Part shown: in pieces, positions 3,047-3,857 of the stretch
Numbering within the stretch: the stretch's first letter is position 1
Layout of the letters: each line of letters begins with the position of its first letter
From: a virus
Lineage: Duplodnaviria; Heunggongvirae; Uroviricota; Caudoviricetes
Length of the DNA stretch: 8,756 bases
Direction: 5' to 3' (one strand)
Virus record (IMG/VR): IMGVR_UViG_2695420412_000001
Made by a program: the position numbers and the translations under genes
The notes under the pieces: generated by a model
Seen by the model: only the letters and a program-made list of their open reading frames with translations
Told to the model about the DNA's origin: nothing
The model's database searches: none

Positions 3047-3370
3047 ATGGATGCACAAACACGCCGCCGCGAACGTCGCGCAGAGAAACAGGCTCAATGG
3101 AAAGCAGCAAATCCCCTGTTGGTTGGGGTAAGCACAAAACCAGTTAACCGCCCTATTCTCTCGCTGAATCGCAAACCGAAATCACGAGTAGAAAGCGCAC
3201 TGAATCCGATAGACCTTACGGTGCTGGCTGAATACCACGAACAGATTGAAAGCAACCTGCAACGTATTGAGCGCAAGAATCAGCGCACATGGTACAGCAA
3301 GCCTGGCGAACGCGGCATAACATGCAGAGGACGCCAGAAAATTAAAGGTAAATCTATATCACTTATTTAG
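3047..3370 (+). CDS. N: Antitermination protein N, 107 aa
   Basis: Translation [28 protein letters not shown]...[55 protein letters not shown] matches lambda N, including the arginine-rich boxB-binding N-terminus. The ORF-track entry 2969..3370 is an upstream in-frame extension. Confidence 0.93.
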
Positions 3371-3857
3371 AAAATGCAGATTTAGGGAACAGATAGGAGG
3401 CGTTACACCTATGGCATCTCATCCTATGGTTAGAAGGTGGTGCAAATCCTTCGTATTGAAGTATGGATTTCACAGAAGATTCATAGCATTGAGCGCAAAG
3501 ATAGTGCATTGGCTGACCGGTATTTGCCGATTTTTTGAGACGATAAACCACCGTAGCAACAGTAGGTGTATACATCTCATAGTTTTTCTTTTCCTCTTCC
3601 CACTTAGAGGCTCGATTTATCTTTTCTTCAAGCTCAATAATCTTGTCCTTAGAAATCATCAAAAGCTCATTAAGTGACATTTGCTGCTGTTGGGCATCCA
3701 TGAGCTTATCGACAAGTTCGTATGTTTTTTCTTTTACTGAGTAGTCTATTTGCATTTTCTGGATTTCCTTTACTGCGCCAACAGCACTCATCAGAGCACC
3801 TCCGGCACCAGAAACTGCATCTGTAATCCTACTTATTATTCCTTTTTCATCAGACAT
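3363..3857 (-). CDS. Hypothetical protein, 164 aa, with N-terminal Gly/Ala-rich segment, central coiled-coil-like region and C-terminal CxxC-X24-CxxC zinc-ribbon-like motif; convergent with N and overlapping its 3' end
   Basis: ATG at 3857..3855 preceded by aagagag SD with 8-nt spacing; an in-frame GTG at 3866 is the ORF-track start. Stop TAA at 3365..3363 overlaps the last codons of N. Product is Lys/Glu-rich with heptad-like ...[45 protein letters not shown]... and C-terminal ...CAQCYESS...RCHRCNASY. The region looks visibly AT-richer than flanking lambda-type genes. No family recognised. Confidence 0.58.

Follow-up and report, generated by a model that had tools for sequence, protein, structure and literature searches.

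The minus-strand gene at positions 3363-3857, which converges on N, is very probably rip1, a single-protein abortive-infection defence gene carried by temperate phages; we put the probability of this assignment at about 0.92. Judged by its sequence, the gene is already known, being almost identical to a defence protein whose publication and structure date from February 2026, and the gene itself is therefore a rediscovery that offers nothing new.

The rip1 gene and its surroundings

The window, by which we mean the whole stretch of 8,756 nt that was analysed, covers the early-left region of a lambdoid prophage, and its plus strand carries the PL operon. In addition to N, the PL-operon genes ea10, cIII with its thermoregulator, gam, bet and exo were found, and an Rfam scan of the whole window returned only Lambda_thermo, the cIII thermoregulator, which was matched at full length at 4542-4600 on the plus strand (88.5 bits, E = 4e-21). 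The features around rip1 are as follows.

1662-2294: 434-type cI (from the ORF list and comparisons)
3047-3370, plus strand: lambda-type N, 107 aa by translation, with 96.9% DNA identity to the lambda N region
3363..3857, minus strand: rip1 coding sequence, 164 aa plus stop, with the ATG at 3857 and the N-terminus MSDEKG
3872..3866, minus strand: Shine-Dalgarno-like AAGAGAG, 8 nt before the ATG (read from the sequence)
4066-4097, plus strand (PL strand): intrinsic terminator-like hairpin followed by a T-run, just upstream of ea10 (from a terminator scan)

The ORF list contained this frame as 3363..3866 on the minus strand (167 aa), beginning at an in-frame GTG at 3866, three codons before the ATG; the ATG start gives 164 aa and reproduces both the length and the N-terminus of the deposited protein of phage HK446. 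The first-pass annotation, which was made from the letters of the window, had described a 164-aa minus-strand gene between N and ea10, and this gene proved real, as the match of ORF 3363-3857 to a solved protein and to 2,973 homologue clusters lies far beyond chance. Two further details were likewise correct: the gene has its own Shine-Dalgarno sequence, and its TAA stop (complement of 3363-3365) lies within the last codons of the convergent N, with an overlap of 8 nt. An alignment showed the AAGAGAG to be conserved in HK630 hkaP as well as in the homologues from E. coli, Proteus and Pantoea. The gene had been called AT-richer than the flanking genes, which is true against N and gam/bet/exo and fails against ea10 and the intergenic stretch; the GC content is 39.6% for the rip1 ORF, 49.1% for N, 49-52% for gam/bet/exo, 38.2% for ea10 and 41.4% for the intergenic stretch.

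The N-terminal half of the product is helical, and its C-terminal half is beta-rich with four cysteines, so that both parts of the Rip1 architecture were found. In the AF2 model of the window protein (mean pLDDT 70), helices at residues 7-34 and 39-90 are followed by a beta-rich domain. A Gly/Ala-rich N-terminus and a Lys/Glu-rich segment had been recognised from the translation, and they correspond to residues 13-30, which are also rich in Ser, and to residues 36-92, which are helical. The latter had been taken for a coiled coil; its helical nature stands, and the region is better described as belonging to the pore-forming half of the protein. Two CxxC motifs are present as had been stated, at residues 121-124 and 148-151, and the spacer between them is 23 residues long, not 24. 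Residues 7-30 are moderately hydrophobic (mean 0.34-0.40) and carry small residues at positions i and i+4 (S16, G20, S24, A28), a composition that may suit a membrane-inserting helix. No strongly hydrophobic transmembrane segment was detected in Rip1, the maximal mean hydrophobicity in an 18-residue window being 0.40.

When the window protein was searched against PDB sequences with phmmer, the only entry matched at E ≤ 0.01 was 9OOX, “ring interacting pore 1 (Rip1)”, with 164 aa and 12 chains (E = 1.4e-105). This entry, released on 2026-02-04, is a cryo-EM structure of Rip1 of Escherichia phage HK446 with the small terminase of Enterobacteria phage T6. The gene had been presented as unrecognised, without a match to any family, and this was overturned, since 163 of its 164 residues are identical to those of HK446 Rip1, the sole difference being Y96H (Y96 here, H96 in HK446). 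A structure prediction, which the first-pass annotation had proposed, gave the same answer: the AF2 model matched 9OOX in Foldseek with an E-value of 1.6e-17 and a TM-score of 0.89. By tblastn, the identity was 99.4% to HK446 over residues 1-164 and 100% to phages ev099 and vB_EcoP-720R6, and the copies in all three phages are annotated as “hypothetical”. The window gene shares with HK446 rip1 the length, the fold and the genomic slot adjoining N, whereas the window phage has a different mosaic make-up that includes a 434-type repressor, a lambda-type N and ea10.

With one substitution relative to the solved protein and a non-canonical promoter, the window gene might encode a Rip1 homologue whose trigger specificity is unlike that of HK446 Rip1, or one that is functionally silent owing to Y96H or to poor expression. 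We regard this as improbable. Position 96 varies freely among homologues, where Y, H, C, F, L and I occur, and the Y96 allele is identical in ev099 and 720R6. At ≥99% DNA identity, moreover, the allele was carried by 97 of the 5,426 complete E. coli genomes examined, always on the chromosome and always as a “hypothetical protein”, which argues for a maintained function, and the promoter block is intact, with a core that is the same as in lambda and P22.

Scans of the window protein with Pfam, NCBIfam and PADLOC v2 gave sub-threshold noise only, so that none of the three holds a model for the family, and the comparison with defence HMM sets that had been suggested earlier thus brought no match above noise in PADLOC v2. 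In PHROGs, the protein belongs to phrog_1244, whose function is listed as unknown, and every name returned by a homologue search by word index was “hypothetical protein”. RefSeq record NC_049953 (ev099) omits rip1 and instead annotates, at 6512-6778, the 88-codon plus-strand ORF that corresponds to 3411-3677 of the window; on the strength of that record, the plus-strand ORF could be the true gene and the minus-strand ORF spurious. The minus-strand product, however, has been purified and solved, thousands of homologues share its conserved Cys, Trp and Tyr positions, and the minus-strand ORF is annotated in HK446, in 720R6 and in E. coli RefSeq genomes. We therefore give the plus-strand ORF next to no weight, and its annotation in ev099 looks like a mis-annotation. 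Given that the family has no Pfam, NCBIfam or PADLOC v2 model, is “hypothetical” in RefSeq and is placed on the wrong strand in one record, annotation pipelines will keep missing rip1.

Two other ORFs of the window were recorded in passing. A 134-aa ORF at 2291-2695 on the plus strand, directly 3' of the 434-type cI and at the position of lambda rexAB, has a signal-peptide-like start and matches phrog_2651 (function unknown, E = 4e-59), with no Pfam or PADLOC match; it may represent another lysogen-expressed moron that shares a transcript with cI. At 7991-8740, also on the plus strand, a 249-aa ORF matches phrog_887, “queuine tRNA-ribosyltransferase” (E = 3.5e-95), over profile positions 7-225 of 509, with no Pfam match at E ≤ 0.01. 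We take this ORF to resemble the DpdA-type transglycosylases of phage 7-deazaguanine DNA modification, in a truncated or short form.

Published function and relatives of Rip1

Rip1 was reported by Patel et al. (2026, Nature 651:1060-1067). As their work is summarised in a review (PMC13434031), the gene for Rip1 lies in a Pseudomonas aeruginosa prophage, where it is placed between the terminase genes, and the protein is non-toxic alone. [quoted passage not shown] The review further states that Rip1 complexes release dye from liposomes and that infected cells lose membrane integrity, the premature lysis aborting the infection. The same account is given in brief in a meeting report (PMC12908700) and in a Nature Communications paper of 2026 (PMC13601566). 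The first-pass annotation had proposed a prophage exclusion, abortive-infection or anti-phage defence gene, and this expectation is supported by the near-identity of the product to an experimentally characterised protein that kills the infected cell by a pore (PMC13434031; 9OOX).

Transferred to the window prophage, the published account would run as follows. Rip1 would be made in the lysogen and, as the literature has it, be harmless by itself. Late in the infection, a superinfecting phage would build large ring oligomers (the small terminase in coliphages such as T6, the portal in Pseudomonas phages), around which about 12 Rip1 molecules would bind via their C-terminal halves. The N-terminal amphipathic helices would then form a pore through the inner membrane, and the cell would die before the progeny are complete.

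The four-Cys motif, a sub-threshold match to Zn_ribbon_4 (E = 0.087) and the position adjoining N could also suggest a regulator of the early-left operon that binds nucleic acid through a zinc ribbon and has no effector role in defence. This is extremely unlikely, because in the solved complex the protein sits round the small-terminase ring, pore activity is on record in the literature, and homologues occupy an unrelated slot, namely the terminase region of Pseudomonas Mu-like phages.

As a ring-triggered defence protein, Rip1 resembles RAZR (ring-activated zinc-finger RNase; Zhang et al. 2026), which is also a zinc-finger defence protein activated by assembling round large phage rings; RAZR differs in having an RNase effector instead of a pore and in being a 24-mer. 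Membership in RAZR was rejected for the window protein, as only 9OOX was matched in the PDB (E ≤ 0.01) and no Pfam nuclease domain was found in Rip1, and the RAZR paper contains no mention of Rip1. The Gifsy-encoded GiPD474 was rejected as well, since it has an ATPase domain and none was found in the window protein.

A profile search yielded 2,973 homologue clusters (50% identity level) at E ≤ 1e-3, including 1,387 at E ≤ 1e-10, and these were almost all stand-alone proteins of 150-175 aa. Among 68 diverse members, the cysteines C121, C124, C148 and C151 never change, and each of W86, Y93, L95, Y105 and H118 is kept in at least 90%. Homologues of rip1 also converge on N-like genes in Pantoea and Proteus prophages. 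Distant homologues (27-32% identity) are encoded by the Pseudomonas Mu-like phages D3112 (orf25), DMS3, JBD30 (gp30) and MP38 (ORF25), and they include HkaP of HK620, HK629 and HK630. Like the Rip1 family in general, the window gene is prophage-encoded and, by its orientation and neighbours, placed for transcription against the lytic operon, with a promoter predicted from homology to that of P22 sieB.

The Rip1-type proteins of these Pseudomonas phages, which belong to Casadabanvirus, have about 30% identity to the window protein over the whole length (E = 6e-26 for JBD30 gp30), with 164 aa and the same four Cys. Their genes likewise occupy the minus strand of the terminase region, antisense to the lytic operon; unlike the window gene, they have no sieB-type upstream block, and the escape mutations of Pseudomonas Rip1 lie in the portal rather than in the small terminase according to the review (PMC13434031). 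HkaP (HK620, HK629, HK630), also a member of the Rip1 family, lies in the same slot as the window gene. With 164 aa and 27% identity (E = 3e-13), it is encoded antisense between cIII and N, and the region upstream of HK630 hkaP is 96.7% identical to that of the window right up to the ATG, whereas the coding sequence has strongly diverged. No characterisation of HkaP was found in the literature.

The defence moron Tab (tail assembly blocker) of Pseudomonas phage JBD26 was suspected first, as the Pseudomonas homologues occupy the Tab slot, with JBD30 gp30 lying antisense between the two genes that flank the Tab-type moron slot. The slot of Tab (JBD26 gp31) is indeed that of the Rip1 homologues in sister phages. 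Tab was rejected because it has 83 aa against 164 aa, and because JBD26 and JBD24 were the sole Tab carriers among the phages tested in the Tab paper, in which D3112 and DMS3 were Tab-sensitive and yet carry a Rip1 homologue. Tab also differs from Rip1 in its action, blocking tail assembly through the tape measure protein.

The sieB slot and the rip1 promoter

In comparison with lambda, rip1 takes the place of the sieB coding sequence exactly. Homology to lambda extends as far as the N stop (3370) and begins again at 3873, immediately before the rip1 start. The ral/sieB interval of lambda had been named as the counterpart of this region, and rightly so, as lambda has sieB, orf28 and ral there. 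Since lambda sieB is likewise convergent with N, abuts the end of N and lies on the strand opposite to PL, the orientation of rip1 was inherited from the slot and is no peculiarity of the gene. A separate deletion at 3958/3963 of the window removed some 340 bp that carry orf28 and ral in lambda (34,056-34,395), and the window prophage is thus without the restriction-alleviation gene; HK630, by contrast, lacks ea10.

By coordinate mapping in the lambda alignment, the terminator-like site at 4066-4097 corresponds to lambda ~33,930. We take this site to be tL1, an annotation that is absent from both lambda records examined. As the site lies beyond rip1 in the PL direction, PL transcripts should first cross rip1 in antisense.

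The slot, the orientation and the upstream promoter block, which are those of lambda and P22 sieB, might suggest that the window gene is a diverged sieB allele encoding a SieB-type superinfection exclusion protein, and a relationship to SieB had been considered in the first-pass annotation. Against lambda SieB, however, BLASTP gave a best E-value of 9.4, and no PF14163 match was obtained at E ≤ 1, although a divergent SieB from the same slot of another contig does match PF14163 (E = 2e-10); the window protein also has no strongly hydrophobic transmembrane segment (maximum 0.40). A SieB allele is accordingly hardly credible. SieB of lambda and P22 remains comparable to Rip1 in slot, orientation, promoter block and a lysogen-expressed abortive-infection function, and differs in being an unrelated protein of the Pfam family PF14163 and in obtaining self-immunity via Esc, which has no conserved counterpart in Rip1. 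An Esc-like internal start was examined at Met23, where GGAGG is followed after 7 nt by ATG (3789-3803, minus strand), and rejected because residue 23 is Lys in nearly all homologues; the internal arrangement is probably incidental.

The 100 nt upstream of rip1 are homologous to the sieB promoter region of P22 and lambda, with a core identical to both, and the P22 record annotates a sieB promoter (5691-5721) and an RNA start (5728) in the homologous sequence. The following features were placed from these comparisons and from folding.

3890..3895, minus strand: predicted -10 hexamer TAAAAT, from P22 sieB promoter homology (P22 and lambda have TAAACT there)
3874..3883, minus strand: second copy of ACCCCTACAG with the predicted rip1 start at ~3883, aligned with the P22 RNA start, the A of the motif
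3868..3888, plus strand (PL-sense): hairpin CTCTTAC-TGTAGGG-GTAAGAG, antisense to the rip1 Shine-Dalgarno sequence and 5' end (terminator-like scan and single-sequence folds)
3902..3926, plus strand (PL-sense): hairpin TTCTCGCTGTA-GGGG-TACACGAGAA, overlapping the rip1 -35 region (RNAalifold and pair counts)
3927..3958, plus strand (PL-sense): near-invariant block CCACCGAGCCTGATGTGGTTAAAAGACAGGCA, containing two mutually exclusive short inverted repeats

A scan with the sigma-70 consensus missed the sieB-type promoter of rip1 because its -35 region is non-canonical (poor). A transcript starting near 3860-3900 had been expected beforehand, and the start predicted by alignment with the annotated P22 RNA start, at about 3883, falls within this range. 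From this sieB-type promoter, rip1 would be transcribed as long as PL is repressed.

The upstream cassette, its hairpins and its cargo

The block CCACCGAGCCTGATGTGGTTAAAAGACAGGCA is identical or nearly so upstream of lambda sieB, P22 sieB, HK630 hkaP and the rip1 homologues of Proteus, Pantoea and an E. coli phage; the upstream block had no Rfam match in the whole-window scan. In the Proteus and Pantoea prophages and in the unrelated E. coli phage, it precedes rip1 homologues with just 45-63% protein identity, from which it follows that the non-coding block is more conserved than its cargo.

A scan of viral contigs with the invariant core found at least 120 contigs, and the cargo, defined as the first ORF behind the block, was tallied among the 120 matches listed. 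The cassette lies at 3874-3958 in the window and was also located at loci L002, L003, L005, L006, L008, L010 and L011-L130. Among the matches listed, the cargo was SieB-type in 52 contigs and divergent SieB-like in 4 more, one of which was checked and matches PF14163 (E = 2e-10), and it belonged to the Rip1 family in 29. The other cargo comprised at least 7 families of small proteins (60-100 aa), none of which received a Pfam or PADLOC assignment and four of which match PHROGs of unknown function; as the first ORF behind the cassette, they are found at L024, L011/L065, L082/L129, L115, L014, L030 and L087. By their position, these small proteins are candidate exclusion or defence genes. PL-operon genes could be recognised in 110 of the 120 contigs listed. 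In all 110 they occupy the strand opposite to the cargo; N and the repressor follow beyond the cargo, whose upstream side holds the recombination genes.

Within the cassette, a repeat of 9-14 nt occurs at about -35 and +1. In the window its first copy, ACCCCTACAG, lies inside the hairpin of 3902..3926 (3908-3917, minus strand), so that the hairpin loop and one arm, read on the cargo strand, recur at a distance of 33-34 nt, precisely where the P22 record annotates the RNA start. This sequence occurs twice in the window against 0.01 occurrences expected by chance, and the two copies co-vary between module variants, as ACCCCTACAG, TTCCACAGTCAA, TCCCCAACAAC, CCCCAATGCAA and CCCCCACAA.

Across 26 module variants of the hairpin, 92.6% of cells were paired against 75.4% in shuffles, and double-change cells numbered 50 against 19. 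The covariation score was 0.551, a value reached by none of 500 shuffles, against 0.242 in shuffles; it was computed on related sequences, for which the shuffle control can overstate significance, and the slide control also favours the hairpin, slid controls giving at most 0.19. In the PL-sense orientation 28 G.U cells were counted against 3 on the cargo strand, and in most variants these pairs give the PL-sense hairpin a far greater stability; for many variants the folding energy was -9 to -12 kcal/mol in PL-sense RNA, compared with 0 to -4 in cargo-sense RNA. The G.U bias and the folding energies suggest that it is the strand antisense to the cargo which gives rise to a structured RNA. Hairpins analogous to that at 3868..3888 were also seen in several other module types in single-sequence folds.

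In P22, the antisense RNA sas controls the translation of sieB, by which the phage escapes its own exclusion (as cited in PMC7067206). By analogy, we infer that the conserved PL-sense element is the counterpart of P22 sas RNA, and it is plausible that rip1 inherits a sas-like self-immunity switch together with the block. When the resident phage enters lytic growth, PL transcripts would run antisense across rip1 and would carry the conserved hairpins, which are complementary to the 5' end of the rip1 mRNA. These PL-sense hairpins would stop Rip1 synthesis, as sas RNA does for P22 sieB. Silencing of rip1 by PL read-through would agree with the conserved, structured PL-sense element and with the P22 sas precedent.

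Based on these observations, we tentatively suggest, at somewhat less than even odds, that the sieB-type block of about 100 nt is, beyond a promoter, a portable regulatory cassette working in both directions, which lambdoid phages employ again and again for diverse lysogen-expressed cargo. Such a cassette would combine a constitutive promoter on the cargo strand with a structured antisense RNA on the PL strand, the hairpin loop and 5' arm being repeated at the 5' end of the cargo mRNA and co-varying with it, and the resident phage could thereby turn off its own defence when it becomes lytic. If this is true, the small cargo proteins that have no assigned family would be candidates for new defence or exclusion genes. 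The cassette also suggests a self-immunity mechanism for Rip1 that is open to testing. For lambdoid phages at large, the sieB-type cassette appears to mark a fixed docking site for defence cargo adjoining N, a side observation that may outweigh the gene itself.
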